This document shows, piece by piece, positions 14,543-36,336 of a DNA stretch of 36,336 bases. Below the pieces are notes generated by a model. The model was given only the letters and a program-made list of their open reading frames with translations, had not been told where the DNA came from and ran no database searches. Position 1 is the stretch's first letter; every line of letters starts with the position of its first letter. Location: the NCBI GenBank assembly GCA_030671745.1, contig DAOVHT010000001.1, positions 1-36,336 of the forward strand, written 5' to 3'. The DNA comes from Candidatus Nanohaloarchaea archaeon (lineage in GTDB: Archaea > EX4484-52 > GLR71). Both the position numbers and the translations under genes were made by a program.

Positions 14543-14543
14543 C

Positions 14544-14931: not shown

Positions 14932-14933
14932 AT

Positions 14934-16804: not shown

Positions 16805-16826
16805 GTATATATTATTGCGTCCAAAC

Positions 16827-16834: not shown

Positions 16835-16836
16835 TT

Positions 16837-16891: not shown

Positions 16892-16945
16892 CTTTTTGAA
16901 TTAAATGCTTAATCGTTATCGGGGCTCTTCCGCATCAACTCAATT

Positions 16946-17788
16946 TCAACTTTTTTTCTTCCTTTCCAACCTCTTAACTTTTTCAGGCACAGTCAAGTAA
17001 TTGTCGCTTGAACTTACTTTCTCATTTGTCTCAGATTCCAATTCCTTTCGCGCATTGCCTGCAATCGAACCTCCTTTTTTTGAAGCAATCTTGTTCTTAT
17101 CAAATTCTATCGCATCCGAAGATTTTGCAATGGCAGTGGTGGAAGCTTCACCAAGCATAGTAAAAATCAACTCTAAACCATCCATATGGTCTCTTAGATT
17201 CTGTTTTTCAAGTCCTTTAAACTCTTTGTATTCAGAAGGTGTCATATCAAAAGTTGCTTTACTAATCTCAGCCGTTAAAATTGAAAACTCTTTATTGGTT
17301 CTCACTCCCCGATTAGTCCATTCATCTGTTAATTCTTCTCTTACTGCAATACCTCTGATTCTTTTCTCAATCCACTCATCCGAATAACCTTTTTGTCGAT
17401 ATAGTTCTTTCATCCTTTTTTGAGCCAATTCTGGATCTTGAATTTCCTGTATTCTTTCATAACCTACTTTAGCGAGCCATTTTTTGAAAGGTTCGGCCTT
17501 CTTTGATGGTATTGATTGTATTATACGAAATAATAATTTTGTATTGGCACAATCAGTATTTCTTAATTTTCCATCTTCTGCGGAAAGTTTCAACTGTACG
17601 ATTTTATCGTACGATTCAAAACCTTCTATATTTAATTTTGATTTCAAATCAGACCAATATCTCTTAGGTATAGAACTCTCCGTTAACGCTTCTACTACAT
17701 CAACAACAGAAAAATACCATTGTTCTTCATGCCAGATTCTCCTGATATCCTTATTTTCAAACACGACCAATGCCTTATCTTTATCCAT
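16946..17788 (-). CDS. Bro-N domain protein (antirepressor/DinD-like), paralogue 1
   Basis: The N-terminus KALVVFENKDIRRIWHEEQWYFSVVDVVEAL is Bro-N-like. The conserved core is SKKAEPFKKWLAKVGYERIQEIQDPELAQKRMKELYRQKGYSDEWIEKRIRGIAVREELTDEW. The ATG at 17788 lies 5 nt after the upstream stop (the track start 17797 is GTG). Confidence 0.85.
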   Translation of the reverse strand: MDKDKALVVFENKDIRRIWHEEQWYFSVVDVVEALTESSIPKRYWSDLKSKLNIEGFESYDKIVQLKLSAEDGKLRNTDCANTKLLFRIIQSIPSKKAEPFKKWLAKVGYERIQEIQDPELAQKRMKELYRQKGYSDEWIEKRIRGIAVREELTDEWTNRGVRTNKEFSILTAEISKATFDMTPSEYKEFKGLEKQNLRDHMDGLELIFTMLGEASTTAIAKSSDAIEFDKNKIASKKGGSIAGNARKELESETNEKVSSSDNYLTVPEKVKRLERKKKS

Positions 17789-17793
17789 ATCAA

Positions 17794-18654
17794 TCACCTT
17801 AATTTCTTTCGTTTTTGACTTTCCGGTTCATCCAGATAATTGTCTTTTGAAATGATAGTCTTATCTAATCGTTTTTCAATATCTTTTCTTGTTGCACCTG
17901 CAACATCGCCACCATCATGAGCATCTTTTTTTATTTTAGCGAATTCTTGTGAATTTCGTTCTTTTGTAAATTTTGTAGTTGTGGCTTCACCTAACATAGT
18001 CAGTATAAGTTCAATGTCATTCATATGGTCTCTTAGATTCTGTTTTTCAAGTCCTTTAAACTCTTTGTATTCAGAAGGTGTCATATTAAAAGTGGCTTTG
18101 CTGATTTCAGCCGTAAGGATTGAAAATTCTTTATTAGTTTTTACACCACGATTGGCCCATTCATCAGTCAGTTCATCACGAACTGCGATTCCTCTAACTC
18201 TTTTTTCAATCCACTCATTCGAATAACCTTTCTGTCGATAAAGCTCTTTCATCCTTTTTTGTGCAAGTTCTGGGTCTTCAATCTCTTGTATTCTCTCATA
18301 ACCAACTTTAGCGAGCCATCTTTTGAAAGGTTCTGCTTTTTTAGATGGTATCGATTGAATTAAACGTAAAAGTCCCATAATATTCCAACACAATATCAAT
18401 TGCGGACCACCTTTAGTATCGAATTCAAATCCAAGGGGGGGTACAATTTGTCCCCCCCCTTTGAACACATCATTTAAAGAGTTATCTCTTTTTCTAAGTT
18501 TTTTTAAGTAGTCTGTAGGATTTACAGATCCTGTAAGTACCGTCACAACATCCTTTATTACAAACCACCATTGATTATCATGCCAAACTCTTCTGATATC
18601 CTTATTTTCAAACACAACCAATGCTTTATCTTTGTCTTTATTCATCTTAATCAT
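17794..18654 (-). CDS. Bro-N domain protein, paralogue 2 (start refined to ATG 18654)
   Basis: Alignment with paralogue 1 (MIKMNKDKDKALVVFENKDIRRVWHDNQWWFVIKDV) supports this start. The TATA CATATAAG (minus strand) at 18683-18690 lies about 30 nt upstream of 18654. The extra 30 N-terminal codons in the track ORF have no counterpart in paralogue 1. Confidence 0.85.
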   Translation of the reverse strand: MIKMNKDKDKALVVFENKDIRRVWHDNQWWFVIKDVVTVLTGSVNPTDYLKKLRKRDNSLNDVFKGGGQIVPPLGFEFDTKGGPQLILCWNIMGLLRLIQSIPSKKAEPFKRWLAKVGYERIQEIEDPELAQKRMKELYRQKGYSNEWIEKRVRGIAVRDELTDEWANRGVKTNKEFSILTAEISKATFNMTPSEYKEFKGLEKQNLRDHMNDIELILTMLGEATTTKFTKERNSQEFAKIKKDAHDGGDVAGATRKDIEKRLDKTIISKDNYLDEPESQKRKKLR

Positions 18655-18861
18655 CCTCTTTGGATGATTTTCATTTTTCAGCTTATATGCCTGTCGGGAG
18701 AGAGCCGTGCCGGTATGCCAATAGAATCCACAATTGATGCACAAAATTGTTGTTTAAGCACTCATTTTGCGCTTAATTTAGATTTAGTGCGTTTATCAAC
18801 GAAACCTTTATAAACTCTGATAACTAATATATACTACTTACAAGTTACACAAATTATAAAT

Positions 18862-19902
18862 ATGGTGTTCAAAATGAATGCAGATGATATGATTTCGGTA
18901 TTGAAAGGCAAGATTAGTGAAATTGACCCAAGAAAAGCCTTTACAGGTGTTGCGCTAGGCACTACCTTATCTCTTGCAGGCGCAGCCCTTATCTATGGTG
19001 ACCTTGAACAGTTTAATGAATCTATAAAAAATACAATGAACGCGGGTGTTAGGTCTGCAAGTTTATATGTTCATGATATGATTTCGGATAATATTTATTC
19101 TATTGAATCTCTAAAAGCGATAGCGACAAATGTTGACAATGAAGTCCTTGCAGGCGCAGGTATGTTGAGTGCTGGTGCACTTTACCATACAATTAAAAAA
19201 AATGGTATTTCTGACACTGGCGCATCAATTTATCATGCAATAGTTGATTCTATTGAAACTCTTGGCATTGATAAAAAACGCGCAAAACGCGGTCTATTAT
19301 ATACTGGAATCCTTGCTGTAATAGGAACTTCAATGGCAACTTCTGGCTGTTTAGATTTCGGCGGCGATGACACAGTTGTTACAACAAGTACTGATAATAT
19401 TCCAACTCCTGAACCAATAGAACCAACTCCAGTTGAAACAGAAACGCAAGTTGAGACTAATATTATAGAACCTGTAGCAGAACAAGTTGAAACTCCATGG
19501 TATGTTGATCAATATGGTTTTGAAGATGCAGATGTTGGTATACATTCAACTTTATTTGATGATGTTTATGCAGTAAAAAGTTCAGCATATGGTGATGGGA
19601 ATTATAATCTTTATAGTATTGAAAATAGTGAATCTATTCTAAAACATCAAGAATTCACTCCATCAAACCTTCGCCTAGACCTCGATCTGTCATCCGACCA
19701 GTATCGCGCACTAAACGCCCAGTACGGCACCATGATTTCCGCGACAATGGAGACAATCGACCTCGACCGCGACGGCACCATGGACCAAGTCGCCATCCAC
19801 TATGTGGGAACCGGCGGGGATGAAGGAAAAGTGTTGGAGATTAAGACTGATTATCAAAACAGATGGCAGTTACGGGATTATTTGATAACTTATTTTCAAT
19901 AG
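18862..19902 (+). CDS. Membrane protein (346 aa), hypothetical, with a T/P/E-rich linker and a compositionally distinct C-terminal domain
   Basis: Three hydrophobic segments are present: FTGVALGTTLSLAGAALIYG, VLAGAGMLSAGALY and LLYTGILAVIGTSMATSGC. The linker is TPEPIEPTPVETETQVET. The last ~75 codons are much more GC-rich than the rest of the gene. Confidence 0.7.
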   Translation: MVFKMNADDMISVLKGKISEIDPRKAFTGVALGTTLSLAGAALIYGDLEQFNESIKNTMNAGVRSASLYVHDMISDNIYSIESLKAIATNVDNEVLAGAGMLSAGALYHTIKKNGISDTGASIYHAIVDSIETLGIDKKRAKRGLLYTGILAVIGTSMATSGCLDFGGDDTVVTTSTDNIPTPEPIEPTPVETETQVETNIIEPVAEQVETPWYVDQYGFEDADVGIHSTLFDDVYAVKSSAYGDGNYNLYSIENSESILKHQEFTPSNLRLDLDLSSDQYRALNAQYGTMISATMETIDLDRDGTMDQVAIHYVGTGGDEGKVLEIKTDYQNRWQLRDYLITYFQ

Positions 19903-19904
19903 AG

Positions 19905-20171
19905 TTAACAAATACAATTACAGTTTTTATAATATGGTAAATTACATTCTGTAACTGGGTCTTCTGCTCTACAACAACTCCAACACAACTGCTGGCACTC
20001 ACTCGCCCCACCAGCCCCCTCAATCTTCGTCCCGCCGATATCAACAAGATCAGCGCCAGAGCGCGTTATGAGTATCAGCATAATCGCCAGCGCAACAAGC
20101 AGCACGATAAGAATTACGATCGTGTTGATAGGCAATTCCATGCCCTTGCGCTTCTTAGAGAAAAGATTCAT
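19905..20171 (-). CDS. Small prepilin-like protein with an 8-Cys C-terminal module (C-x3-C-x2-CC family)
   Basis: The leader is MNLFSKKRKG|MELPINTIVILIVLLVALAIMLILI. The tail is CQQLCWSCCRAEDPVTECNLPYYKNCNCIC. A TATA (GATATAAACC, minus strand) at 20191-20200 is about 22-28 nt upstream of ATG 20171. Confidence 0.8.
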   Translation of the reverse strand: MNLFSKKRKGMELPINTIVILIVLLVALAIMLILITRSGADLVDIGGTKIEGAGGASECQQLCWSCCRAEDPVTECNLPYYKNCNCIC

Positions 20172-20220
20172 AACAATTATTATCGATTCAGGTTTATATC
20201 TGTTTTTGGTGTGATTACTT
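20131..20220 (-). repeat. Direct repeat copy 1: promoter plus the first ~13 codons of the pilin-like gene at 19905-20171
   Basis: 20161-20220 matches 20621-20680 at 57 of 60 positions by my count. 20131-20150 also matches 21845-21864 at 16 of 20 positions. Confidence 0.85.
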
Positions 20221-20471
20221 ATATACTCGTTTTCTGGTATCTATATTTATGACAACAACAAGAAGATTATTGTAATCAACTCTGTAAAGTATACGAAAAT
20301 CTCACACCCTGATTCTAAACACTTTCTCTTTTTGACCCATTATTCTTTTTGAATCATGTGGTATCGGGTCCTCTGCAAGTTTTTCAATGGATTCAAGAAT
20401 TCTCAGAGTCATATTCTTATCAAGTTTTTAAGTGATTTCTGGATTGGTTTATCTAAAAATATCTCAAACAT
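20215..20471 (-). pseudogene. relE: RelE/ParE-family toxin pseudogene (one frameshift plus one in-frame stop)
   Basis: The minus strand reads MFEIFLDKPIQKSLKNL, then needs a 1-nt insertion to continue as (D)KNMTLRILESIEKLAEDPIPHDSKRIMGQKEKVFRIRV*DFRILYRVDYNNLLVVVINIDTRKRVYK. The stop (TGA) replaces the Gly of the conserved RiRvGdyRiiY motif. It is below the track threshold because it is broken. Confidence 0.8.
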
Positions 20472-20473
20472 AT

Positions 20474-20587
20474 TCAAAGACCCAATTCTTTCTTAAACTC
20501 AGAAATAGATACAAGTTTACCTTCTTTTTCATTCTTGAAACTTTCATCTACAAGAACTTTATCTTTCTCGCTCAATATAGTATCCAT
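20474..20587 (-). CDS. Short (37 aa) antitoxin-like ORF immediately upstream of the relE remnant; possibly itself truncated
   Basis: MDTILSEKDKVLVDESFKNEKEGKLVSISEFKKELGL. Its stop TGA (20474-20476) lies 2 nt before the relE ATG (20471), which is the typical type II TA arrangement. Confidence 0.5.
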   Translation of the reverse strand: MDTILSEKDKVLVDESFKNEKEGKLVSISEFKKELGL

Positions 20588-20599
20588 GTCAATTATGGC

Positions 20600-20680
20600 A
20601 TACCCTTCTCGCTTCTTAGAAAAAGATTCATAACAATTATTATCAATTCAGGTTTATATCTGTTTTTGATATGATTACTT
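20600..20680 (-). repeat. Direct repeat copy 2: degenerate promoter plus frameshifted leader remnant (MNLFLRSEKGMP*)
   Basis: It is about 90% identical to 20140-20220 with two 1-nt indels. The TATA-containing part is retained. The remnant ORF stops after 12 codons. Confidence 0.85.
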
Positions 20681-20723
20681 CTTTTTTGATATAAAATTAT
20701 GCTTTGAGTTTGTATTGCTGAAA

Positions 20724-20755
20724 GGTGTCTACAAAAATATATAAATGTAGACACC
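20724..20755. promoter_or_regulatory. 32-bp palindromic element A (10-bp arms around an AT-rich TATA-like spacer), 6 nt upstream of the Fic ATG
   Basis: GGTGTCTACA-aaaatatataaa-TGTAGACACC. Confidence 0.6.
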
Positions 20756-20761
20756 CATTAT

Positions 20762-21670
20762 ATGTTTATGTTTATAGAAATAAGAAAACAAGGAAAAAAG
20801 AAAAAATATTATCTTGTGCATACATATAGATCTGCTGGAAAAGTCAAAAGAATATCCAAGTATCTTGGTTCTGATATAGATGATAAGGAGTTGCAGAAAC
20901 TAAAAAGTATTGCCGAAAAAAGAATTATTGAGGATTTAAAAGAAAGAAATATTTTAGAATTTGAATTAAATGATGACGAAATAAAGTATTATACTAACTA
21001 TGACTCTAAGATAAAGATAAAACATTTGCAAGGTATTGATTGGACTGATTTTAAAAAACGTTTTACATACGATACAAATGCAATAGAAGGTTCTACAGTT
21101 ACCTTGATTGATGCAGAAGAACTGTTGGGACAAAATAAAAAACCAATAAATAATGACGAGCTTGAAACAGTAAGTGTCTCTGAATCTGTAGATTTCATTA
21201 GAAACACTCAAAAAAAAATGTCAATTGAATTGATTAAAGAAATCCATAACATATGTTTTAATAAAACCAAGCCATTCGCTGGCAAGATAAGGGATGTACC
21301 AGTTGTTATAAAAGATTCTTATGGGAATATTATCCATGAAGGCGCTCCAGTTGATTTGATTGACAAATTACTGACAGAATTATGTGTTTGGTATGAAAAA
21401 CATATAGATATATATCCTCCATTACTTATTTCAGCATTAGTCCACAATCAATTTGAAAACATACATCCGTTTCAGGATGGTAATGGTCGGGTTGGAAGAT
21501 TGTTACTCAATTATGTGCTGATAAAACATAATTATCCACCTATAAACATATTATTGGAAGATCGTGATATCTATTATGAATCTCTAAAGCATTTTGATGA
21601 TAATGGTAATATTGTACCTACTTTAAAATTTTTGATAAAATTATATAAAAAACAATACAATATTTCATAA
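20762..21670 (+). CDS. Fic/DOC family protein (probable AMPylase or related NMP-transferase)
   Basis: The canonical Fic motif HPFQDGNGRVGR (HxFx[DE]GNGRxxR) is present. Length is 302 aa. A second ATG at 20768 is an alternative start. Confidence 0.9.
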   Translation: MFMFIEIRKQGKKKKYYLVHTYRSAGKVKRISKYLGSDIDDKELQKLKSIAEKRIIEDLKERNILEFELNDDEIKYYTNYDSKIKIKHLQGIDWTDFKKRFTYDTNAIEGSTVTLIDAEELLGQNKKPINNDELETVSVSESVDFIRNTQKKMSIELIKEIHNICFNKTKPFAGKIRDVPVVIKDSYGNIIHEGAPVDLIDKLLTELCVWYEKHIDIYPPLLISALVHNQFENIHPFQDGNGRVGRLLLNYVLIKHNYPPINILLEDRDIYYESLKHFDDNGNIVPTLKFLIKLYKKQYNIS

Positions 21671-23527: not shown

Positions 23528-26500
23528 ATGCGACTCTTAGCAACCCTGATAGCATTTGCACTGATCCTTTCAGTCCCATTCATATCAGAAATATCCGCAA
23601 CCGCAACATCATCTGAAAACACACTTAAAATAGTAGCACAGCAAGACGACAAAGTCAGAGTCATAATAACTTTCAAAGACACGCCAAAGACTGCAAAAGA
23701 TAGCATATTCAATACCCTAGGCATCCCGCAACAAGACCCGAAAGAGAAGATAAAGGACAAGATAAAAACTGATGGACAACTGAAGCACGAATTCCAGACA
23801 ACAGACAGTGTTTCTGCAACGATTACTCAAGAACTGCTTGACGAACTGAACTCAGACCCGTCGATTGCATACATAGAACAAGATAGACCGGTGCAAGCAT
23901 TCCTATCTCAGAGCGTACCGTTAATAAACGCTGATCAAGCCTGGCAACAGCAGATGCAGGACACAGGTCTCACCGGCAAAGGGACGACCGTCTGTGTGAT
24001 AGATACTGGGATTGACTACACACATCAGGATCTTGGAAACTGCACAGTATCAACATTTAATTTAAATGGCGTGAATGAAAGCCATATTTTGGAATCTGCA
24101 CACAATTACACTAATAATTTTGATCATACCTGGTCTATAACTAAACCTGGATACACAGACATTGCAGTCTATTTCAGAAACATCAGTCTGGAATACAAAG
24201 GCGAGGTTGATGGTTCAGACACAGGTGATAGGATAATTATCTATGATGGTGATATGGTTGAGATTGCAGTATATCATGGAATTGATGGTGTAATTGAAGA
24301 CCTGTGGACACCATATTCTGAGGGTGACACAATCTACATACGGTTGGTGACTGATTCCGGGTTTAGGGATTACGGTTTTTATATTGATTCTGTCTTGAAT
24401 GGCACCACAGACACTACTTATGACTGGAGCAACTGTTCAAAGACAATAGGTGGTTGGGATTTCGTCAATGGTGATGGTGACCCGATAGATGATGATTTTC
24501 ACGGCACCCATGTTGCAGGGATAATCGCTGCAGATGGAACAGTGACTGGTGTCGCACCGGACACAGGACTGATCGCAGTAAAAACTCTGGATGCAGGTGG
24601 TACTGGTTGGTTTTCAGATACATTGTTAGGTATTGAATATTGTATAAATAATTCTGATAGATATAACATATCAGTTATCAGCATGAGTCTTGGGGCTATA
24701 GATACATATTATGATTCTTATTGTGATGGTGACAGTCCATCGATGTCAAATGCAATAAACACTGCAGTTGCAAAAAACATCTCGGTCATAATTGCAAGTG
24801 GGAATAATCATCCGCCAACAGGCATCAGTTATCCTGCCTGCATAGAGAATGCAACCCGTGTAGGCTCGACATCAAAATCAGATGTCATTGAAAATTACAC
24901 TCAACGAAGTGTTAATTTCAAAGATCTGCTTTTGGCTCCCGGTGGTAATATATATTCTACAATGCCTGCGGATAACTACGCTACTAAATCAGGAACTTCA
25001 ATGGCGACACCGCACGTTTCAGGTGCCACCGCCATATTAGTCCAGGCCTATCAAGACCGGTTCGGGAAAAGACCGACCCCTGCATACATAGAATATGTCC
25101 TGAACAAGACAGGAATTCTGATCTATGACAGCCAGACCGGGCTGAACTTCTCGCGCATTGACGTCCTAGCGGCAGTATTGTACATCAACACACCACCGAA
25201 CATTACAGACATCTACAACAACATAACTGAAGACGGTTCACAAGAAATAACCATCAATGAGACCGACTCAATACTCTTCAACCTGACAGTGTTGGCGCCA
25301 GTCAATTACACCTGGAAAAAGAACGGCACGACAGTGGGCGCAAACCAGTCTAACTGGACCTTTGACACAACTTATGATGATGCAGGATTCTGGATAATTG
25401 AAGCAATAGTAAATAATGACAATGGCACAAGAACCAAAGAGTGGAATGTGACAATAGATGATGTCAATCGCGCACCGACCATCACATCAATCTCAAACAT
25501 AACGATGGACCTCCAGGATCAGATAACCATCAACATCTCAGCAAACATATCAGACCCTGACAGCGACACATTGACGATAACAACCGATGACCCCGGAAAC
25601 ATAACTGTAGAGAATCACACATTAGTATTCCATTACACCGAAAATGTCACAGACAAGCCCGTCACGATAACTGTCAACGACTCAGACCTGACAACCAACA
25701 TTACAATCTACATAAACATCACAGATGAATTACTCAACATCACAGACACTTACAACAACATAACCGGCGACAACAGTTCAACCCTTACGATCAATGAGAC
25801 CGATTCAGTATTCTTCAACATATCAACAGATGTCCCGGTGAATTATACTTGGTATATTAATGATACAAACATCGGAAATAATTTCAACAATTATACATTA
25901 ACGACCGGTTTTGATGACGCCGGAACAAAGAACATTTCAGTCAACGTTTCAGACAATGAAAGCCATAACACTTTTAGGTGGACTGTCACAATCCTGAACA
26001 AGAACCGCCAACCAATAATCACAACAGTATCAAACATATCAATGGAACTCCAGAATCAGACAACAATCAACATCTCAGGCAACATATCAGACCCTGACAA
26101 TGACAATTTAACGATAACGACTGACGACCAAGAAAACATAACAATAGAAAACCACACATTGATATTCAATTACACAGAGACTGTAACGGACAAACCCGTC
26201 ACGATAACTGTCAACGACTCAGACCTGACAACCAACATTACAATCTACATAAACATCACGGATACGACCGCACCGACAATAACAATAGATTCACCCACAA
26301 ACAAGACCTACAACACGACCGATATCAACATATCGATCAATGCAGATGAACCATTGGACTGGTGCGCATACTCCTTAAACGCCCAACCAAACATAACGAT
26401 GAACTGCACAGAAAATAGTAACATGACGGCCATTGAAAATCTCAACAACCTGACTCTCTGGGCGAACGACACATCCGGAAATCTGAACCGCACAGAGGTC

Positions 26501-27544
26501 TTTTTCACAGTTGACACAATCTCCCCAAATATAACAATTACAGCATTAAACTACACGACAGACGATTATCTTTACATAAACCTTTCAGTTTCAGAAACAC
26601 CAGACACCTGCATATTGAATTGGCAGGATGAAAACATCACGATGAACAGGACCGGAACAAAATGTGACATCAACAAGACTTCAATTTCTCCAGGTATCTA
26701 CAATTACACAATCTATGTCAATGACACGGTGGGCAACACAGGTTCAATCACCGACTTACAGTCAGAGATCTATTACTGTTTTGTTTCAGTCACCGACTGG
26801 ACATCCTGCGTCTCAAGCTCAAGGACGAGAATTCACACATACCGAGATTGCACAACTTACACAGAGACTGAGAGCTGTCACTCAAGCAGCGGTGGCGGTT
26901 CGTCATCATTTTCATTTGTACCGCTCCCTGTTATATCTAATGACACATTGAACGAAACATTGACAAATATTACAGATGACCCATTAAATGACACTGAAAC
27001 AGATTGGGATCAGAATGATACAACACTGATAACGAACAGAACACAAGACGATATTCTTGATTCTGATGATACTAAAGAAACAGATGGAAATAAAGTGGGC
27101 ACTCACACGATTTCCGATGATGGATACAAAGATTTAGAAGATATAGACGATGGTTTCTTGGGGATAAGATTGTTAGATGATATTCTTTTTGAAAACAGTT
27201 TGATTTCAAAAATAAAAGATAGATTGGGTATTGATTCCTCAGAAGATAACACTTTTAATTCTATTGTGTTGCTGTTTACAATAATTGTTATCTTTGCTAT
27301 AATTGGTATTTCTTATAACTTCAATAGATCTTACAAGAGAAAACACAAACAAAAACAGACATTGGATAATGGTACTGTCTTAAATACAGATGATGAGAGC
27401 AATCAACCCTCGCCAATCTCACCCAAACAACAAGAGATTGTATCCGACCTCTCTCAGAAAACCTATTTAAACAACACCGGACAAAATAATAATGATAATA
27501 GTCCTAAGGATGTATATTTAGATGGTGTCAAGTACAAAGAATAG
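23528..27544 (+). CDS. Large membrane-anchored subtilisin-like protease (S8) with a propeptide, a CUB-like insert, tandem repeats and a cytoplasmic tail
   Basis: The signal peptide is [24 protein letters not shown]. An I9-like propeptide (VRVIITFKD) follows. Catalytic motifs are [10 protein letters not shown] (Asp), [10 protein letters not shown] (His) and [12 protein letters not shown] (Ser). About 169 aa separate Asp and His. The C-terminal TM segment is [23 protein letters not shown], followed by a tail of about 90 aa. Confidence 0.93.
25202..26275 (+). repeat. Two tandem 537-nt (179-codon) repeat units inside the protease gene
   Basis: Unit 1 starts with ITDIYNNIT (25202) and unit 2 with ITDTYNNIT (25739). 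A 65-nt tract is perfectly identical between 25658-25722 and 26195-26259. Confidence 0.9.
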
Positions 27545-28520
27545 AAAAGGTAATAGTGCAGTAATCAATACTATACTTGTACTTGTCATGCTCTTAGTTG
27601 TTGCAGCGATACTGATATCTTTCATATCAGGTCCTGCCAAAAAACTTGACATCTTTACAACTGAAAAAAATGATGAGACCAGTACGACTTTAGATGTCGG
27701 CACACTTGCATTGATGGACACGAATTTTGTCAATTTTGACACGACCAAAGCAAAGACTGAAATGATAAAATTAATAAATATAAGTAGTACTTCTTCAATT
27801 ATAGATTGTGGTGCAACTACCCTAACCTCAGAACAGGAAAATTACTGCACAAACATAACAGTCTCAATATCACCCGCACCTCCCAAATACTCAACAACTC
27901 CCGAAGGAATACGATTCAAGATATCCTATATCAATAAGACCTTATTTGACGATATTGAAGGTTACGTCAACCTGACTTTCGTTGATGTCTACGAATTCAA
28001 TCAGGTGTTCACATCTAAATTAGGAGATTTTAATAATTGCACTGATCCGATAACAGAATCCTGTTTCAATGAATCAACCACAAAACCTATGACAAACCTG
28101 ACATTGATTTCTATGTTCAACGACGAGATATTTGTCCGAATGCCTTTCTATTACGATAATTTAGTGTCTAGTGGTTTTTCTTATGAGGATAACTGTGTTG
28201 CATATGCAAATTACTCAAACCTAACAGCACAGAATACAAATATTCAGATAGAGGTTGATGCTGAAAGTCCCGCACCATCATACAACTTTACGATTGTCCA
28301 CATGGAAAAGTCACACAAGAGGGAGTATCCAATTTATTGTAATGTCTCAATAAATAGGGGTATTGCCCATGACTTTCCAGTTCAGGTAGTTTCAGGCGAT
28401 TACGACCTATTCAGGATTTATGGCTGGAACTCAACAAGTACGGATTGCATTATGGTAAAAGACGATGTCCTTGTAAAAAAAGATGATACCACACCATTAA
28501 AGATAAAATTTAAATGTTAA
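27522..28520 (+). CDS. Prepilin-like-leader secreted protein (332 aa), sequon-rich
   Basis: The leader is [10 protein letters not shown]|[25 protein letters not shown]. The ATG lies 23 nt inside the protease 3' end. An SD-like TAAGGA is at 27505-27510. Confidence 0.8.
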
Positions 28521-28553
28521 ATATAAAAGAAAATGATTGCAAGGTAAATGATT

Positions 28554-28811
28554 ATGCGACGAATTGGACGGATGGATATGGCAATGGCAGTGACAGTAAT
28601 CTTAGCCATAGTGCTTATTGCAATCATTGGAAAGATGGTATTTGATGTCTTTGACAGTGGTGAGAATGAAGCCGGCGGTATGTTTGACTCATTAAAATGC
28701 CAACCAAAAATAGCCCAGGCCTGCATGGATGGCGGAATTTCAGAAACAGATAATGTTGATGGCACTTGCATAACTGAAGCAAACAGAGCAACAATCTGTG
28801 ACGATGTATAA
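28554..28811 (+). CDS. Small pilin-like protein (atypical leader) with 4 Cys
   Basis: MRRIG|RMDMAMAVTVILAIVLIAIIGKMVF. AAGGT at 28541-28545 lies 8 nt upstream of ATG 28554 (the track start 28548 is also ATG). Confidence 0.65.
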   Translation: MRRIGRMDMAMAVTVILAIVLIAIIGKMVFDVFDSGENEAGGMFDSLKCQPKIAQACMDGGISETDNVDGTCITEANRATICDDV

Positions 28812-28812
28812 A

Positions 28813-29136
28813 ATGGTGTTGATTATGATAAAAAACAATAACCGAAAAGGTCAGATGTCTATGGGTACAGTAGTTGCCTTAGTGATTGCATTTATAGTGA
28901 TATTGGTTATTGTGGCGATTGCAACTGATTTCGGTGAGAGGACAAAAGACACCGCACCATTCGACGATGCAAAAGTAAAAGCGGAAGACGCGATGAATGA
29001 TAAGAGATGTGCAATGGTCTGCACTGCCTCATGCATTGACAAGGCATATGTGATTGATAGTGACTGTGCAGATTATGTGCGTGACTGTTGTGATTGCGAC
29101 AGCGTAGATGATATAACTGATGGGTGTGATTCTTGA
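28813..29136 (+). CDS. Small prepilin-like protein with an 8-Cys C-terminal module (variant pattern)
   Basis: ..IKNNNRKG|QMSMGTVVALVIAFIVILVIVAIA. The tail is CAMVCTASCIDKAYVIDSDCADYVRDCCDCDSVDDITDGC. The ATG at 28813 lies 2 nt after the upstream stop (the track start 28798 is GTG; ATG 28825 is also possible). Confidence 0.75.
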   Translation: MVLIMIKNNNRKGQMSMGTVVALVIAFIVILVIVAIATDFGERTKDTAPFDDAKVKAEDAMNDKRCAMVCTASCIDKAYVIDSDCADYVRDCCDCDSVDDITDGCDS

Positions 29137-29168
29137 TTATTGATCTAATACTTTCTATATTCTCAAGC

Positions 29169-29384
29169 ATGAATTCATTAGTATTATTTAAAAACCGCAA
29201 AGGTGAAGTTGACGCCTTGATGATCGCTCTTGCTGGTGTATTGATTCTCGCAATATTAGCTCTAATTTTTGTCATGACGGTGGGTACTTCTCTTGACGGC
29301 GGAGTAGAGATGATCTGTAAATATAAAGCAGACGCTGTTGGTAAATCCGGAGAAGTAATAGCTGATATATTGGGGGTCTGTTGA
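29169..29384 (+). CDS. Mini prepilin-like protein (71 aa; about 59 aa after the predicted cleavage)
   Basis: The ATG at 29169 gives MNSLVLFKNRKG|EVDALMIALAGVLILAILALIFVM. The track start 29133 is a TTG overlapping the upstream stop. Confidence 0.65.
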   Translation: MNSLVLFKNRKGEVDALMIALAGVLILAILALIFVMTVGTSLDGGVEMICKYKADAVGKSGEVIADILGVC

Positions 29385-29386
29385 AC

Positions 29387-30691
29387 ATGAACATGCCTCA
29401 GACCTTGATGATGATGGCTTTTGGAGTGTTGATTGCCGGTTTCCTTATATTTATGATGGCAAAGACCATAAATGTCGGTGTTGAAGTCAAGATGAGCACC
29501 CGTGTTGAACACATGGCTGACGACCTCGCAAATGCAATCCAGCACATGTCCTCATCGACGATAGATTATGCAACTGAAGTGTATGATGTCGGTATCTGGG
29601 GCACTTCGATAAATATTGTGGATGATGATAGTACTGATGATCATTATGTCACCGTAAGACATAGAGACTTCGAATTTTCTCAAGCATTCCATATTGCAAA
29701 AGACATAACTGTTCAAGGTACAATCTCTGACGCAAAAGTTTTATGCCTTGAGAAATCATTCGATTCAACAGATAAGAAAATGATAAAGGTTTCAAATTTT
29801 GATGATTCTCCATGCAACACTGCCTACAAGGAACTAGACTTGAGATATGATTTTGATTGGGGTTTTGATGATAAGCAGATAGTTCAAGGCGAACTGAACA
29901 GTGTTCCGGATGGTGTTGATTTAGTAACTGAGTTGCCGATTGGAAAAATCAAAGGTGCATCATTTCATAATTTTGATATGACCTCTGATGACACAAAAAA
30001 ATATTTTTGGATACGACCTGGTGAGCAGACGAAATATTTCATAAAATTTGATCTATACATACCATATGATCCGATATCTGCAACACAAAATAATTCAGTA
30101 AACATAACGCTTGACGTATCACCATTGAATCCTTTATATGTCGATGTTGCTTATCAGAACATGGCAAAGTATCCAGATTGTGGTGCTGTATCAAGGGATT
30201 ACAGTTGCATAATCCGTAGTGAACATGATATAACTCTGATATATAGGAATGGTTGGAGACCTAACATAACCATCATAAACACACAAGCAACCAAGGATTT
30301 TTATGACTGGGGTTTTGTGGGTAGAGAATCCTTCTATAATGAGACCTTGACAGATTACCCAAACAACACAGTCCAGATGGTACAATTCCATAATTTCATA
30401 ACACCTGAAAACGAATATGTAAACATAACTCCAGTGGACATGGGTCGCAATTATTTCAGTTTCAATGTGCGCGTCCCAGATGATAACAATGCCGTCACAC
30501 ACAACAATGTCTCTATTACATTAGACATTGACCCGTTCTATTCACAGAATGTAGATCTGAAAAATGGTGCAAAGACAATGCCTGAATGTTATACTGGCGA
30601 GAAACCATGTTTCATAAGGATAGGGTCTAGCGTAATCCTTGATCTTGAACCCGGTGATTACGCATTTATAATTGAAGATTCAAAATATTGA
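29387..30691 (+). CDS. Signal-anchored secreted protein (434 aa) with an internal ~150-aa duplication
   Basis: MNMPQTLMMMAFGVLIAGFLIFMMAK. The two repeats share the pattern DWGF...FHNF...N[VS][NS]ITLD[VI].P...C...C[IF]IR. The track start 29381 is a TTG overlapping the upstream TGA. Confidence 0.75.
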   Translation: MNMPQTLMMMAFGVLIAGFLIFMMAKTINVGVEVKMSTRVEHMADDLANAIQHMSSSTIDYATEVYDVGIWGTSINIVDDDSTDDHYVTVRHRDFEFSQAFHIAKDITVQGTISDAKVLCLEKSFDSTDKKMIKVSNFDDSPCNTAYKELDLRYDFDWGFDDKQIVQGELNSVPDGVDLVTELPIGKIKGASFHNFDMTSDDTKKYFWIRPGEQTKYFIKFDLYIPYDPISATQNNSVNITLDVSPLNPLYVDVAYQNMAKYPDCGAVSRDYSCIIRSEHDITLIYRNGWRPNITIINTQATKDFYDWGFVGRESFYNETLTDYPNNTVQMVQFHNFITPENEYVNITPVDMGRNYFSFNVRVPDDNNAVTHNNVSITLDIDPFYSQNVDLKNGAKTMPECYTGEKPCFIRIGSSVILDLEPGDYAFIIEDSKY

Positions 30692-30702
30692 CAAGGAGAT
30701 TA

Positions 30703-31266
30703 ATGATTATGTCCCTAACAGCATCCATTTCAAAAAAGAAAAAGAAAGGTCTTCTATTACCTGTATTCTTCCAAAAGGTAATGATGATAGGTCTTGTGGT
30801 CGGTGTCATGATGTGGATGATTTTTTCTACAATTAATTCTGAGGAAGTATCAGTCATAATGCGCCAGGAACGAAACGATGTAGAATTCTGGCATCAGATA
30901 TTAAAGTCTGACATATTCCGCGCAGAATCAGAAACAAGCACGACCACCACACAAACTGATTACAAAATGTATTTTGATGAAAGTAAATTAGATACTGCTA
31001 GAAGTAGTACAGGAGGTTCGACAGCATTACCTGGGGATATATCTTGTAATATTCCTCTAAATTTATCAAATTGCATCAATTTTTATCCAAGTAAATATTA
31101 TATAAAAATAAAAGTAGGTGGGGATAATTGGCTTTTCACAAATAATGCAACATTATCATCTGCTTTTGACAACTATGATTACAAAGAGGTAATTGGTGTC
31201 TTAACTCCCTCAAATCCAAACCCTACTATTGGCACAATATACTTTAAGACTGAATTATACGAATGA
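30703..31266 (+). CDS. Prepilin-like-leader protein (187 aa)
   Basis: MIMSLTASISKKKKKG|LLLPVFFQKVMMIGLVVGVMMWMIF. The SD-like AAGGAG is at 30693-30698. The track start 30688 is a TTG overlapping the upstream stop. Confidence 0.75.
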   Translation: MIMSLTASISKKKKKGLLLPVFFQKVMMIGLVVGVMMWMIFSTINSEEVSVIMRQERNDVEFWHQILKSDIFRAESETSTTTTQTDYKMYFDESKLDTARSSTGGSTALPGDISCNIPLNLSNCINFYPSKYYIKIKVGGDNWLFTNNATLSSAFDNYDYKEVIGVLTPSNPNPTIGTIYFKTELYE

Positions 31267-32030
31267 TTATTATGAACTTTATATTTAACAGATATAAACA
31301 GAACAGGATATTCAAAAGAAAAGGTTTTGTACAGCACTGGTTCGTGCTTATAATGTCTTTTCTGTTAGTGATAGCTATAATTATTTTAGTAACAATTTTT
31401 AATATAAATGTAACTTCAACTGTTGTTACAGGTAATCTTAATATGCAGTATTCAACAGACGCAGGACGAGAGATCTATGCACTTCTTTCGGCAGGTTGTC
31501 CTGCAGTCGGCGACCCTTATACTGATTATAGTGTTTCAGAACTCATAAGTGTGTATGTCAGCGGTGACTTAACAGTCAAAGAATCAATAGATACTGATCT
31601 TAGAGATTGCATAGCTTCATCTCTTGCAACAATCGCAGAAGTCAATGAAGGAGTCGATAAAACTGGAGACCCTATTCCACATTATATGTACTTCTATGTG
31701 ACTTATGGTAATAACAAATATATTGAAAGTAGGCAACCAAGCATGGTATATGACCCGGGTTTACACACTTTAATGCCTTGGAACTCTGAATTTATATCAA
31801 CAACAACTGGATTAGATTTTAATACTACTATTTTGGGTGGTAAAACACCTGCCTCTTTACCAGTAGATCCTCGTTATTTCTCAAGCACGATGAATGATAG
31901 GTACTCCATACAGATACCATTATCTGATTCCGGCAATATGCAACACAGTTCGGCGACCGCAGTCTTAGAGGAATGGAGTGATGAGTCCTGGACAACACTG
32001 ACACAGGCACAACAGGAGGAGAGTGCATGA
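31263..32030 (+). CDS. Prepilin-like-leader protein (255 aa)
   Basis: ..NRIFKRKG|FVQHWFVLIMSFLLVIAIIILVTIF. An ATGA overlap joins it to the upstream gene. Confidence 0.75.
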   Translation: MIIMNFIFNRYKQNRIFKRKGFVQHWFVLIMSFLLVIAIIILVTIFNINVTSTVVTGNLNMQYSTDAGREIYALLSAGCPAVGDPYTDYSVSELISVYVSGDLTVKESIDTDLRDCIASSLATIAEVNEGVDKTGDPIPHYMYFYVTYGNNKYIESRQPSMVYDPGLHTLMPWNSEFISTTTGLDFNTTILGGKTPASLPVDPRYFSSTMNDRYSIQIPLSDSGNMQHSSATAVLEEWSDESWTTLTQAQQEESA

Positions 32031-35000
32031 GGATAATATCTAAAACAAGAACAAAAGGCGTTTCAGGAATCGAGATGCTTATTCCCATTTTCTTGTTGAT
32101 GTTCTCATTGCTTGTAATATTTGCAGGTATTGAATGGGGTGTCAATACACTGGTGCTGATGGATGAAGAGAAGCAGGTCACCCAGATGGATACCGAACTC
32201 TTGAGCGTCACCGACCTTTACATAACTCCATCATTGAAATACGCAATGCAAGAAGTCACAAGAGATCTAGCGCTGCATGGTGGGTTGTCTTCCGAGATAT
32301 TGGATAATCACAAATTATTTGTTGATGCTATGATGTCTGATTCAGCCAAAGATAATCTAAAGGATGATATAGTTTCAGATTTCAACAACGGTGATCTTGA
32401 TTTCCCATCAATCACCAACCCACCGATGAAAGTTGAAGGGAACATTCTTTACTGGTCATATTATGATAAGATAAGTAAAAAGAATCAAGAGACAATACCT
32501 TACGAGTATGATTTTATAGGTTCAATAAACCCATATAACTTATGCGGTACTTGTAGCCTTGAATGGTCTCCACCCTATACCTATTTGATAACTGATATCA
32601 AGGGAACTGTAAACAGATATGATGTAGATAACGGGAATTATATCCTTTCTGAACAGTACACAGGACCCACAATAATTTCTGGAGATACGCTGATAAAGCT
32701 TAATATGTCCAAAAGTACAGAGTCTGCTAAAGTTGAAGGAGTATATAATATCCGTTCCTATTTTGAACCGTTATTCCCGAGCGTATCATATCCTGGTGAC
32801 GCACTTGCACAAAGGACAGTATTCCCACGGTTTACAGATGTCATGCTGAGCGACAGGTTGAACAGTTACAGGTCAGATTACGGAGATTCAAAGACAGACA
32901 TAGGATCCACATTATCTCTCGGCACCTGGAACGCATTCTTTGTACCTGTACTGATGGAATTGGATAAGACTCTCGCATTCTATGGTGGCAACCGTCTTGT
33001 TGAGAGCACATCTTCAATTGAGATGGAAAATGATGACCCCGTAAAATCAGAATTAGACAATAGATATTGGAGATTATATGATATTGCAACATTATTTATG
33101 GATAATGTCACAGATGATGATTTCTTGGACGACCCATTGACGATGAATGCATATTATTCAGAAGAATATAATGGTTATGAAATATTTCGTGATAAAAGTC
33201 CAAAGACCTGTAGTGATGAATGGAGCATTTCTTGTGATGGTACCACAAATAATATCTTGACTACTCCGTCATGCACGTCATCAACATCAAGCACAGATGA
33301 ATTATATATCAAAGAATTGACAATAGATTCGCATGAATATGAGTTAAATGAGATAATAAATGTGGAACTTTTTGTTGAATGCATTTATAATGAATATTTC
33401 AATTGGACAATTGCTTATTATGATGGTGGCATTGGTTGGGGTTATAATAAGACCGGTACTGAAAAATGTCCATCTAATTATGGTGGCAGTATAAATATTT
33501 CAGAACAATTGGCTATGGAATCTACATATAGTGGTATTCATCTGATAAGAGCAAGTGTTGGAAATGATTCCACTGATATCTTGGGTAGTACTTGCATGTC
33601 TGCAGACAATGATGATGTTACTTTTACGACATTGGGTACTTCGAGTTATATGTATGCGGAGTCTGTTAATGATACCTGTTTTGATGGCGATAAGAATTGC
33701 ATTTTCCAAAAAGCGTGTAATGATAAATATCAAGGGACTCCTCCACAATTAACACCTAAAGATCCGTCTGACAAATTCACGACATTAGAAGCAAAAGATG
33801 GCAGCTATGAAAGTATACCAATCATTTTTGATGTTGAAGATAATTTCAATTACAATTATTATCAAAAATTTAAAGATGTTGGTCTTGTTCCATTCATATA
33901 TGACGAAATGTCAAAAGAAAAGCTTGCAAAGAATATATCCGCTGCTGATGAGGTCTCTCTTACTTTCAATTATGGTTCTGATACAACAATTGCCTGCAGT
34001 GAACGTGAGGATGTAATAGAAAAGATTACAGTATTTATGATTTATAATCCTACTTTGGTACCTGCTATAACTCTTGATACTTTTGCAATTAATCCTCTAA
34101 AACTAACTGCTGATACTTCTCGGGTCGAAATCGGTTCAATAAATCCAGAATTAGGTAGCACAGACAGTTCTGACTTTTACAAGAAACAGAAAATAATTCT
34201 GAATAAGGCGTTGATTGCAGAAGTAATAAATAAGACAGGTAATATCAAGTTTACAATTCAGGCAGATACGGTTGCAGATGGTGAAAACATACCTGCACAG
34301 ATGTATACCGACAGAAATTCAAGGATTTATGCATACGATATCTTGATGAATGGTGCATACCCATCAATGACAATTGACATAAATCCCGATTATATGACAG
34401 ATAGCCTTGAACCATCTATGAATTATGGTTTCAAGAACGCAAAAGGAATAGCGGTTGACAAAGATGGCAACATATATGTCATAAATTCAGATGACCACAG
34501 GTTGTATCGATACAATAGTTTCGGAACCTTCAGTGGCTGGATGGACCTTCTTGACTTAGATCCACGAGGTGTGGATATAGACACAAGCAATGGCAACATC
34601 TACATAAGTTATCATGATGGAAGAAACATAACAAGGTACGACAATTTCTTCGATTCGCGCGATTTGGCACAGAATGCAGGCATACCACCAACACCGTTCC
34701 AGATGTGTGGCCGTTTCGTCAGTGCAAATCCTACAGATGTTGCATATTACAAAGGTACTGTCTTCACGATTTTTGAAGATGATAAATTGGATTACTGCAA
34801 ATCTTCAAGTGACAGCTGGTATGTGGGTTCATTACCTGATGTCGCAGGAACAGACAAGATAATGGCAATATCTGTCGATCAGGCAGAGGACCGTCTTTAT
34901 GCAAAAATAATTAAACCGAACCCAACCGGGACAGGTTTTGTTTATACATATAATGTATATGGCATGAGTGCTTTTGCAGAGAACCCTATTACATCAAATA

Positions 35001-36336
35001 TTAATCTTATTTCTGAAACTGCGATTCCTATTCCTTTTGAATTAAGATACTTTGACATATACACTCCTCAACAAGGTGGTGATGCCCAGGCATATTTTGT
35101 GCGGACAACCTCTCAAAAATCAGAAGCAATCGCGCTCCTTAACGATTTCAGGTTCAACATAGATTTCGGCGACACTTTTAAGATTGAAGTAGAATCAATG
35201 GGTAATGTAAAAGGATTGACTGATAGAATCGAATATTATGAAGATGGTTGCGGGTCTGTCACAGAAAAAAATAATTGTGAAACTTTATGGGGGACATATG
35301 CTTTAAATGAATATTTCAAAGAGATATCATATTTTAATGCAAGTGATGATGTTGATTGCAATGAACTTAATCAAGGTTTGGGTGTTGTTGACAATGAAAC
35401 GATAAGCAAGATAAAATCATTATTAGGAATTCCACAGACCTCAAATATCTCCTGTACTAAGACTATTGATTCTGCAAATATGGCGAATCCTTTTATTGGT
35501 AGTTATATGGAATCAAAGATACAGGATAAGATAATAGGACCAAGGATAATCAATGAAGTCAGAGGATTAAATGATATCTACAATTCAGAAGGCATATATA
35601 TTGATGTTGATTATGCCATTAATTCTGATTTTGGTACTTCCGGTTGGGATGCAGATGGGTTCTGGAAAGAAGAAGACTCTTTTGTATCTGGATCAGTATC
35701 TACAGGTGTAGCTTGTGGCTGTGCTGGACGTTCAGATGTATGCGGTGATGGTAATGGTGCAAGTACATATATAAAAAAGACAGAGAGTTATTGTGATTAT
35801 AATTATGGTGCAATATACTCTTTGAATGTCACAATCGAAGACCGGAACACAGACATTTGGGATCCTGTTCTACACGATATGACTTCATTGAAATTCAAGT
35901 ACGGCTTTGAATGGTCTGCATTGGATGATGACCAAAATTATACTTATATCGCAGATGAAAGAAATATGGATGCATATTTGGCAGGAGATGAGGCATATTG
36001 TGCACCTAAATACACACCTGATGTCTGCCATACTCAAGATAGTATTGCAAATTATGATCACTATATGAATGATCCTGATGAGTGTCCTGGAAAAGAAAGT
36101 TCAGATGTGACGTACAATGTTCTCAATTGTCAAGATGATGATTATGGATATTGTTATGGTCCATTCCATACTCACTGTCGCAGTTGCGGTTTAGGTTGTA
36201 CAAGTTGCTATTCGCATCGTCATAAATCTTGTTATAATTATGGATGTTCACCAAAATATACTTATGCAACTACTAATTATACTACGTATACTACTTGTTC
36301 TGGCCCACAGATCCCACCAAGACCTCCAACCCCCCC
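32027..36336 (+). CDS. Giant prepilin-like-leader surface protein, 3'-partial (more than 1436 codons, no stop before the window end); absent from the supplied ORF track
   Basis: ATG 32027 overlaps the upstream TGA (gcATGA). I read this frame codon by codon to nt 36334 without a stop. The leader is MRIISKTRTKG|VSGIEMLIPIFLLMFSLLVIFAG, with Glu at +5. NHL-type repeats and a Cys-rich distal region are present. All other-frame track ORFs across this 4.3-kb span are shorter than 90 aa. Confidence 0.88.
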   Translation, partial: MRIISKTRTKGVSGIEMLIPIFLLMFSLLVIFAGIEWGVNTLVLMDEEKQVTQMDTELLSVTDLYITPSLKYAMQEVTRDLALHGGLSSEILDNHKLFVDAMMSDSAKDNLKDDIVSDFNNGDLDFPSITNPPMKVEGNILYWSYYDKISKKNQETIPYEYDFIGSINPYNLCGTCSLEWSPPYTYLITDIKGTVNRYDVDNGNYILSEQYTGPTIISGDTLIKLNMSKSTESAKVEGVYNIRSYFEPLFPSVSYPGDALAQRTVFPRFTDVMLSDRLNSYRSDYGDSKTDIGSTLSLGTWNAFFVPVLMELDKTLAFYGGNRLVESTSSIEMENDDPVKSELDNRYWRLYDIATLFMDNVTDDDFLDDPLTMNAYYSEEYNGYEIFRDKSPKTCSDEWSISCDGTTNNILTTPSCTSSTSSTDELYIKELTIDSHEYELNEIINVELFVECIYNEYFNWTIAYYDGGIGWGYNKTGTEKCPSNYGGSINISEQLAMESTYSGIHLIRASVGNDSTDILGSTCMSADNDDVTFTTLGTSSYMYAESVNDTCFDGDKNCIFQKACNDKYQGTPPQLTPKDPSDKFTTLEAKDGSYESIPIIFDVEDNFNYNYYQKFKDVGLVPFIYDEMSKEKLAKNISAADEVSLTFNYGSDTTIACSEREDVIEKITVFMIYNPTLVPAITLDTFAINPLKLTADTSRVEIGSINPELGSTDSSDFYKKQKIILNKALIAEVINKTGNIKFTIQADTVADGENIPAQMYTDRNSRIYAYDILMNGAYPSMTIDINPDYMTDSLEPSMNYGFKNAKGIAVDKDGNIYVINSDDHRLYRYNSFGTFSGWMDLLDLDPRGVDIDTSNGNIYISYHDGRNITRYDNFFDSRDLAQNAGIPPTPFQMCGRFVSANPTDVAYYKGTVFTIFEDDKLDYCKSSSDSWYVGSLPDVAGTDKIMAISVDQAEDRLYAKIIKPNPTGTGFVYTYNVYGMSAFAENPITSNINLISETAIPIPFELRYFDIYTPQQGGDAQAYFVRTTSQKSEAIALLNDFRFNIDFGDTFKIEVESMGNVKGLTDRIEYYEDGCGSVTEKNNCETLWGTYALNEYFKEISYFNASDDVDCNELNQGLGVVDNETISKIKSLLGIPQTSNISCTKTIDSANMANPFIGSYMESKIQDKIIGPRIINEVRGLNDIYNSEGIYIDVDYAINSDFGTSGWDADGFWKEEDSFVSGSVSTGVACGCAGRSDVCGDGNGASTYIKKTESYCDYNYGAIYSLNVTIEDRNTDIWDPVLHDMTSLKFKYGFEWSALDDDQNYTYIADERNMDAYLAGDEAYCAPKYTPDVCHTQDSIANYDHYMNDPDECPGKESSDVTYNVLNCQDDDYGYCYGPFHTHCRSCGLGCTSCYSHRHKSCYNYGCSPKYTYATTNYTTYTTCSGPQIPPRPPTP
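34445..34965 (+). other. NHL-type beta-propeller repeat region within the giant ORF
   Basis: GIAVDKDGNIYVINSDDHRLYRYNSFG and PRGVDIDTSNGNIYISYHDGRNITRYDNF match the NHL repeat consensus (G.a.D..GniyVaD..n.ri..f). Two further degenerate blades follow. Confidence 0.6.

Follow-up and report, generated by a model that had tools for sequence, protein, structure and literature searches.

Pilin-like proteins and a putative modular adhesin in a conserved operon of a DPANN archaeon

The contig DAOVHT010000001.1 (GenBank assembly GCA_030671745.1, labeled Candidatus Nanohaloarchaea archaeon) carries, at 23528-36336, a run of tightly packed genes that encode a subtilase and eight further proteins, which we call A to H. 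We analyzed the entire contig of 36,336 nucleotides (nt), hereafter the window, so the end of the window is also the end of the contig. A first-pass annotation, made from the sequence alone, had counted nine genes downstream of the subtilase, or ten in all. The consecutive packing on the plus strand is as it described, but there are eight genes downstream of the subtilase and nine in all. These are listed below, with lengths in amino acids (aa) and with a slash at the predicted cleavage site:

23528-27544, plus strand: subtilase, 1338 aa
27522-28520, plus strand: gene A, pilin-like, 332 aa; cleavage site followed by NSAV; one transmembrane helix; globular part of about 290 aa with 8 Cys
28548-28811, plus strand: gene B, small pilin-like protein, 87 aa; leader RRIG/RMD; 4 conserved Cys in the tail
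28813-29136, plus strand: gene C, small pilin-like protein, 107 aa (112 aa from an alternative GTG start at 28798); leader NRKG/QMSMG; 8 Cys in the tail
29133-29384, plus strand: gene D, 83 aa; long leader ending in NRKG/EVDAL; mature protein of about 59 aa, nearly all helix
29387-30691, plus strand: gene E, 434 aa (436 aa from an alternative TTG start at 29381); no basic leader and no Gly site; hydrophobic helix from about residue 5
30709-31266, plus strand: gene F, 185 aa (alternative TTG start at 30688); leader KKKKG/LLLPVFF
31272-32030, plus strand: gene G, 252 aa (255 aa from an alternative ATG start at 31263); leader KRKG/FVQHWF
32027-36336 (contig end), plus strand: gene H, putative giant modular pilin-like adhesin, 1436 aa in the window and 1528 aa in full; leader TKG/VSGIE
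34412-35041, plus strand: six-bladed NHL-type beta-propeller within H, approximately residues 796-1005

Gene A does start 23 nt inside the 3' end of the subtilase gene, as originally noted. Of the five stop/start overlaps that had been reported, all have TTGA or ATGA at the expected position, but three of them exist only if translation begins at an upstream TTG; in the public annotations, E, F, and G begin with ATG instead, and gaps of 2-17 nt remain. Each of the eight proteins A-H has one N-terminal hydrophobic helix and no more, and they are often rich in Cys, with many sequons. In E, the helix is followed by two similar sequence repeats of about 130 aa (as judged by eye), and E is likely an uncleaved, N-anchored accessory subunit.

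The N termini of seven of these eight proteins (A-D and F-H) have the architecture of archaeal class III, or prepilin-like, signal peptides, and their orthologs keep it. This is what the first-pass annotation had proposed, and all six of the leaders that it quoted are present in the window, although its tally of six out of nine products has to be replaced by seven out of eight. The exception is E, which has no leader in any ortholog that we aligned. In A, C, D, F, G, and H, the pattern is exact: a positive residue at position -2, Gly at -1, and a hydrophobic helix of about 20 residues. Gene B had been set apart as atypical, and in the window its leader is RRIG/RMD, with R at -3, but its orthologs carry RKG/RMD.

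The Gly at the junction is kept in all seven families, across 5-6 distinct relatives per family, while the flanking residues vary. Among these orthologs, the sole departure from Gly at -1 is an Ala in the ortholog of A from L004 (L numbers denote individual loci); across 6 orthologs, the site in A is conserved as [RK][KE][GA]. In H, Glu at +5 is invariant in all orthologs. Archaeal signal peptidase III (SPase III) acts on substrates with a positive residue at -2, and positions -1 and +1 are critical (PMC3387779); known processing sites include KG/Q, KA/I, and RA/L (PMC4371748). The leaders of the seven proteins fit these published criteria, in support of the view that the proteins are pilin-like.

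We also scanned all 96 six-frame open reading frames (ORFs) of at least 60 aa with the rule that [KR]-x?-G must lie within the eight residues before a hydrophobic 19-mer. An N-terminal hydrophobic 19-mer was found in 25 of the 96 ORFs, and 15 of those 25 pass the rule; a 16th has Ala at -1 (RKA/MTQ). None of the five spurious ORFs among the 25 pass. Conservation across orthologs is stronger evidence for a leader than these ORF statistics.

We considered whether A-H might instead be ordinary signal-anchor (type II) proteins of an envelope complex, which would not be cleaved and in which [KR]G would be this lineage's habit of satisfying the positive-inside rule. In favor of this explanation, we did not find a match to a pilin profile or fold (see below), and both E and a 217-aa protein encoded elsewhere in the window are N-anchored without the motif. 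But the positive-inside rule does not account for a Gly that stays exactly at the junction in seven families while its flanks drift. In addition, the motif is absent from the spurious hydrophobic ORFs. Overall, it seems unlikely that these are ordinary signal anchors.

The first-pass annotation had named conservation of gene order in relatives as a check on the operon, and the order is indeed conserved: A-H are arranged in the same way in L004, L005/L010, L008, L009, L011, and L012/L013. Two more loci are partial owing to contig ends (L006 begins at B and L007 begins at H), and in L012/L013, gene A is split by a 100-N scaffold gap, yet it is present. H has seven homologs in the databases, at 40-79% identity, while F has 16 and E has 11, all of them close. 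The block diverges rapidly, with 36-59% identity in a comparison in which ProRS, the prolyl-tRNA synthetase encoded upstream, is 84% identical.

The subtilase is less constant. It lies upstream of A in the window and in L004, L005, L008, and L009, but in L011 and L012/L013, A follows ProRS directly, and A-H are intact without a subtilase there. Thus, the subtilase is an accessory gene and not a core part of the locus, which corrects the first-pass annotation, where it was an integral part of the apparatus. As that annotation stated, it is membrane anchored: it has a Sec-type signal peptide, a weak match to an I9 propeptide, a catalytic domain at residues 150-526 (Pfam Peptidase_S8, PF00082, E = 8e-44) with the triad D159/H325/S491 in canonical motifs, and a C-terminal transmembrane helix at residues 1243-1261. 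Some 165 aa are inserted between the catalytic Asp and His and show a weak CUB-like match, and the protein also carries Ig/cadherin-like repeats and 80 N-glycosylation sequons. Within the gene is a DNA repeat of about 246 nt, in two copies that are about 85% identical (approximately 25481-25726 and 26018-26263), which encodes duplicated Ig-like modules. The protein may process or clear surface proteins. Its topology (signal peptide, S8 domain, C-terminal transmembrane anchor) is like that of the mycosin-type subtilisins of type VII secretion, and it likewise sits beside genes of an export or surface system. However, the match to mycosins is limited to the generic S8 core (TIGR03921, 100.8 bits versus a cutoff of 278.75), and at three times the size, the subtilase here also differs in its stalk of glycosylated repeats and in that the locus can do without it. 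A second S8 subtilase, at 4-1287 of the window, is cut by the contig start (26 Cys, isoelectric point [pI] 4.05, Pfam Peptidase_S8 with E = 8e-54).

These observations bear on the idea that the subtilase and A-H form one self-contained, new apparatus, in which the subtilase would be indispensable for maturation or assembly and would take the place of the classical machinery. In its favor, A and the subtilase gene share 23-32 nt in three loci (the window, L005, and L008), and the subtilase is present even in L004, the most divergent relative. But A and the subtilase gene do not overlap in L004 or L009, where 32-63 nt separate them; with a Sec signal and a membrane anchor of its own, the protein needs no export partner; and A-H are intact in L011 and L012/L013, where no subtilase lies between ProRS and A. 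We therefore consider a self-contained apparatus of this kind very improbable.

The largest protein, H, had been described as a giant NHL-repeat protein. An NHL propeller is present, but it covers only about 210 of the 1528 residues. The Pfam NHL model (PF01436) matches with 27.2 bits, above its cutoff of 20, and when a profile of H was compared with the sequences of solved structures, it matched the PknD and Pizza NHL propellers (E = 7e-14). Our structural model of H covers residues 1-1200 and has a predicted local distance difference test score (pLDDT) of 42, so only the propeller region is usable; in this low-confidence model, residues from about 800 to 1000 align by Foldseek with six-bladed NHL propellers over about 240 columns (E of about 1e-6). 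The C-terminal part of H is rich in Cys (36 Cys).

Besides one NHL repeat, the only other match to Pfam or NCBIfam in the operon is the S8 domain. Gene A has a sub-threshold match to the UpsA model of NCBIfam (E = 0.0025, 18 bits versus a cutoff of 130). Searching 1.84 billion representative proteins with a profile of E recovered only E's own three clusters, plus one weak match to an Ig-repeat adhesin, and scans of metagenomes from the Joint Genome Institute with alignments of E and H found no relatives. Thus, the families of A-H are near-orphans. They are also dissimilar from each other: all-against-all comparison of the eight globular parts with hhalign found no similarity among them. In the AlphaFold2 model of F (pLDDT 62.6), a helix of 50 residues (17-66) precedes a small beta-sheet head of 3-4 strands, an arrangement that, at moderate confidence, looks like the general topology of a pilin. 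The pilin-like reading of A-H is supported by leader architecture and synteny, and not by homology or a confident fold.

The first-pass annotation was also correct that no FlaI/PilB-type ATPase or platform protein is recognizable in the window, and we found no candidate for a prepilin peptidase in it either. The only polytopic membrane protein on the contig is an MFS transporter. The AAA_14 ATPase is the sole P-loop ATPase, as claimed, but its Walker A motif is not the only such string, as there is a chance match in IleRS. Past the end of the window, there is no canonical pair of ATPase and platform genes: what comes after H is a small pilin-like ORF, then genes for a UbiE-type methyltransferase and iPGM. 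In the flanks of the relatives' loci, which we covered up to 10 kb downstream of H and over a shorter distance upstream, no ATPase or platform gene was called either.

The first-pass annotation treated the missing machinery as an anomaly, but it is not unusual: Makarova et al. (2016) reported pilin genes outside of type IV pilus operons in most archaea and described archaeal loci that pair about 5 minor pilins with PilY-like adhesins (PMC4858521). In pilus loci of DPANN archaea, "dark-matter" proteins with signal peptides have been interpreted as diverse pilins (PMC6393860), and in related DPANN metagenome-assembled genomes (MAGs), the ATPase, TadB/C, and the peptidase are encoded, yet "no pilins were annotated" (PMC9563170). 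According to a survey from 2026, several filament systems of archaea include large proteins that resemble adhesins (bioRxiv 10.64898/2026.04.22.720090).

The class III-like leader is not confined to A-H. We identified nine further class III-like genes in the window, for a total of 16 in 36 kb, with products of 62-1528 aa; these account for 16 of the roughly 20 plausible N-anchored proteins of the window. The boundaries that the first-pass annotation gave to the locus (23528-36336) are therefore too narrow, and the leader seems to be a general feature of this organism's surface proteins. The additional genes are as follows:

8517-13803, minus strand: second tightly packed cluster of surface proteins, with four class III-like proteins and one leaderless N-anchored protein; in order, 197 aa (RRSG/LSIF, 17 Cys), 69 aa (SRKG/AMD), 395 aa (SKKG/TITMM), 863 aa (NKKG/TLPLV), and the leaderless protein of 217 aa
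13813-14001, plus strand: class III-like gene, 62 aa, in tandem with the 92- and 84-aa genes
14006-14284, plus strand: class III-like gene, 92 aa, 8 Cys
14288-14542, plus strand: class III-like gene, 84 aa, RKA/MTQ
15223-15522, plus strand: class III-like gene, 99 aa, 8 Cys, about 680 nt beyond the 84-aa gene
19905-20171: class III-like ORF, 88 aa, a paralog of the small pilin-like genes

In its composition, the second cluster (8517-15522) resembles the A-H operon. Its 395-aa gene is duplicated in L011 and L012.

One more class III-like gene lies between H and the UbiE-type methyltransferase, in L001 and in all relatives. It encodes a Cys-rich protein of about 97 aa that begins with MKSRKG/MSMALTLVVTAVVLIVISLVII, is related to the 92-aa protein, and keeps a highly conserved N terminus even in L004. 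It is at 12951-13247 in L004, 14746-15045 in L005, 8269-8562 in L006, and 18864-19157 in L012; in L001, it starts at 13784, just beyond the end of the window, and is cut by a scaffold gap. This protein, together with the paralogous 92- and 99-aa proteins and the 88-aa ORF, are candidates for the major (shaft) pilins.

The abundance of these leaders raises the main rival explanation for A-H, in which the class III leader is a general route for export and anchoring and the proteins form a bindosome-like or pseudopilus-anchored surface complex, held by their N-terminal helices, with no extended pilus. The 16 leader genes among about 20 plausible N-anchored proteins would fit, as would the lack of filament machinery linked to the locus. 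There is a precedent in the bindosome of Sulfolobus, whose binding proteins use class III signals without long pili (PMC4858521; bioRxiv 10.64898/2026.04.22.720090). As with A-H, class III leaders are found there on large surface proteins that are not pilins, and assembly is type IV-like. But the bindosome's ATPase and platform are encoded within its own locus, and its substrate-binding domains are absent from A-H: searches of Pfam and NCBIfam found no substrate-binding or S-layer domain in these proteins. Also, a fixed order of unrelated small subunits with one large adhesin is closer to a set of minor pilins, and H retains Glu at +5. We regard a bindosome-like complex as doubtful, albeit a better prospect than uncleaved signal anchors.

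The surroundings of the operon are those of a cellular chromosome, as the contig also encodes IleRS, an archaeal-type ProRS, a HIT protein, and the MFS transporter. We considered and rejected a mobile or viral origin for A-H, since in all relatives the block sits between ProRS and the methyltransferase and iPGM. The window is 99.8% identical to contigs of MAG GCA_023143955.1, which NCBI labels as Candidatus Aenigmarchaeota, and to a scaffold in ENA that extends 2.2 kb beyond the window end; the labels of the relatives vary (DPANN group, Nanohaloarchaea, or just "archaeon"). Assemblies of relatives include GCA_019429125.1, GCA_054921135.1, GCA_030594885.1, and GCA_030631965.1. Downstream of H, the relatives have the 97-aa ORF, the methyltransferase, and iPGM, and some also have a DsbD_2/FmdE membrane protein and a NUDIX gene. 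In the lineages without the subtilase, H is followed by an N-anchored protein and a DsbD_2/FmdE membrane protein of about 575 aa (L007 4855-7049, L011 17234-19947, L012 16026-18220). The N-anchored protein has 156 aa in L007 and L012, while in L011 the longest ORF has 333 aa. The DsbD_2/FmdE protein, which the window's lineage lacks, may act as a partner of the Cys-rich surface proteins that handles their disulfides.

The products of the operon are acidic (pI 4.1-5.9; 4.2-5.9 for A-H), and across the window, surface and secreted proteins are strongly so (pI 4.1-4.8), with few Lys or Arg, but cytoplasmic IleRS and ProRS have a pI of 7.7 and 7.1, respectively. Because these cytoplasmic enzymes are near neutral, the acidity is a property of the exported proteome, and we rejected the idea that it reflects a halophile with a salt-in cytoplasm.

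Between the second cluster and the subtilase, a region of low GC content (34%) at 15536-21670 encodes the AAA_14/DUF4143 ATPase, two Bro-N paralogs that are 64% identical to each other, a 346-aa protein, the 88-aa class III-like ORF, and a Fic protein. Because homologs of the second cluster directly adjoin ProRS in L011 and L012, we conclude that this region is an insertion specific to the window's contig, and it looks like a mobile or defense island.

The first-pass annotation did not recognize the locus as a described type. Its protein families are indeed orphans, but the kind of system is already known. In bacteria with type IVa pili, minor pilins and PilY1 are encoded in operons that are separate from pilB and pilC, such as fimU-pilVWXY1E in Pseudomonas aeruginosa and the minor-pilin/PilY1 clusters of Myxococcus xanthus. 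These appear to be the closest functional analogue of A-H, by architecture only. In both cases, one operon, apart from the ATPase, platform, and peptidase, combines dissimilar pilin-like genes with one large propeller adhesin, and a role at the tip or in priming has been proposed; PilY has been placed at the pilus tip (PMC4858521). The differences are that the operon here has 7-8 subunits rather than 4-5, that H carries a pilin-type N terminus and PilY1 does not, that the propeller is of the NHL type instead of the C-terminal domain of PilY1, and that the host is an archaeon. We found no match in Pfam or NCBIfam between A-H and the N-methyl prepilins (GspH-K, PilV/W/X) or the C-terminal domain of PilY1.

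The form of H itself has a parallel in PilB and PilC of Streptococcus sanguinis. These are modular pilins in which a bulky adhesive domain is joined to a pilin N terminus, which makes the adhesin itself a subunit of the filament (PMC9934059). They show no homology to H, which has about 1500 aa and several uncharacterized domains, and in S. sanguinis the genes belong to a complete pilus locus.

Among archaea, the Epd pilus of Methanococcus maripaludis is similar in having KG/ processing sites, including KG/Q as in gene C (PMC4371748). Like A-H, the Epd pilus, or archaeal type IV filament (TFF) system 1, has several minor pilins, an adhesin-like component, and a major pilin that is encoded away from the machinery, and TFF system 1 has been reported in some DPANN archaea (bioRxiv 10.64898/2026.04.22.720090). 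Unlike A-H, the Epd minor pilins are encoded inside an 11-gene machinery locus. Also, the substrates of EppA share Gln at +1 and Glu at +5, whereas here Gln at +1 is found only in C (in 5 of 7 sequences, including the window's) and Glu at +5 only in H. We detected no family-level homology between A-H and the Epd pilins.

Our preferred explanation, which we hold with modest confidence, is that A-H are a lineage-specific module of minor pilins and a modular adhesin, belonging to a type IV-like filament in a DPANN archaeon. Besides the leaders, several observations count for it. First, the order of A-H is kept even as the identity of H drops to 40%. Second, the eight globular parts lack similarity to each other, as in sets of minor pilins. 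Third, each product has a single N-terminal helix, which a beta-sheet head follows in the moderate-confidence model of F. Fourth, H combines the NHL propeller with the invariant Glu at +5. Fifth, the low pI and the numerous Cys and sequons of the products are in keeping with a surface location. A role in a surface filament or in adhesion, which the first-pass annotation had put forward as the most economical reading, is upheld.

Several results weigh against the minor-pilin explanation. The pilin and archaellin models of Pfam and NCBIfam gave no match to A-H or to the small proteins at E <= 0.1 to 5. Among the sequences of solved structures, nothing matched the profiles of A, E, F, and G, and Foldseek with the moderate-confidence model of F found nothing better than E = 0.6 and no pilin. 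Under the strict FlaFind pattern for positions +1 to +4, only C and two small proteins encoded upstream would pass. The 36-kb contig has no gene for an ATPase, platform, or prepilin peptidase, and none was called in the flanks of the relatives (up to 10 kb downstream of H, less upstream). Finally, the presence of 16 class III-like genes within 36 kb suggests that the leader may serve here for surface anchoring in general rather than mark filament subunits.

If A-H are a minor-pilin module, we would expect the proteins to be inserted through Sec and then cleaved after the Gly by a prepilin peptidase of the PibD/FlaK/EppA type. The products would be extracted from the membrane by an ATPase and a platform whose genes lie elsewhere in the genome, and A-H would form a priming or tip complex of minor pilins, in a type IV-like filament or a short pseudopilus, that presents H as its adhesin. 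Candidates for the shaft would be the small, highly conserved, Cys-rich pilins (of about 97, 92, 99, and 88 aa). The likely role of such a structure would be to attach a small symbiotic cell to its host cell or to a surface.

A more ambitious proposal is that A-H and the second cluster together make up an organelle dedicated to host contact in a single small clade of DPANN archaea, with all of its components from orphan families. We consider this possible but would not call it probable. If it is true, then the organelle would have a tip complex of seven unrelated pilin-like subunits, a leaderless anchor, and a 1528-aa propeller adhesin fused to a pilin N terminus, and the rapid divergence of the block relative to ProRS would track host specificity. 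Such an organelle would also give archaea their first defined counterpart to the minor-pilin/PilY1 priming complex of bacteria, with its genes located away from those of the machinery.

DPANN archaea rely on physical contact with their hosts, and their genomes encode pilus motors, but annotated pilins are usually absent (PMC9563170; bioRxiv 10.1101/2025.08.05.668663). This locus suggests that the pilins may be hiding in orphan families, recognizable only by an N terminus with [KR]G and a helix. For annotation, scans with leader rules, combined with conservation across orthologs, could recover surface-filament genes that profile libraries miss. A-H and the small Cys-rich pilins would then provide a conserved set of candidates for the host-contact biology of DPANN archaea.

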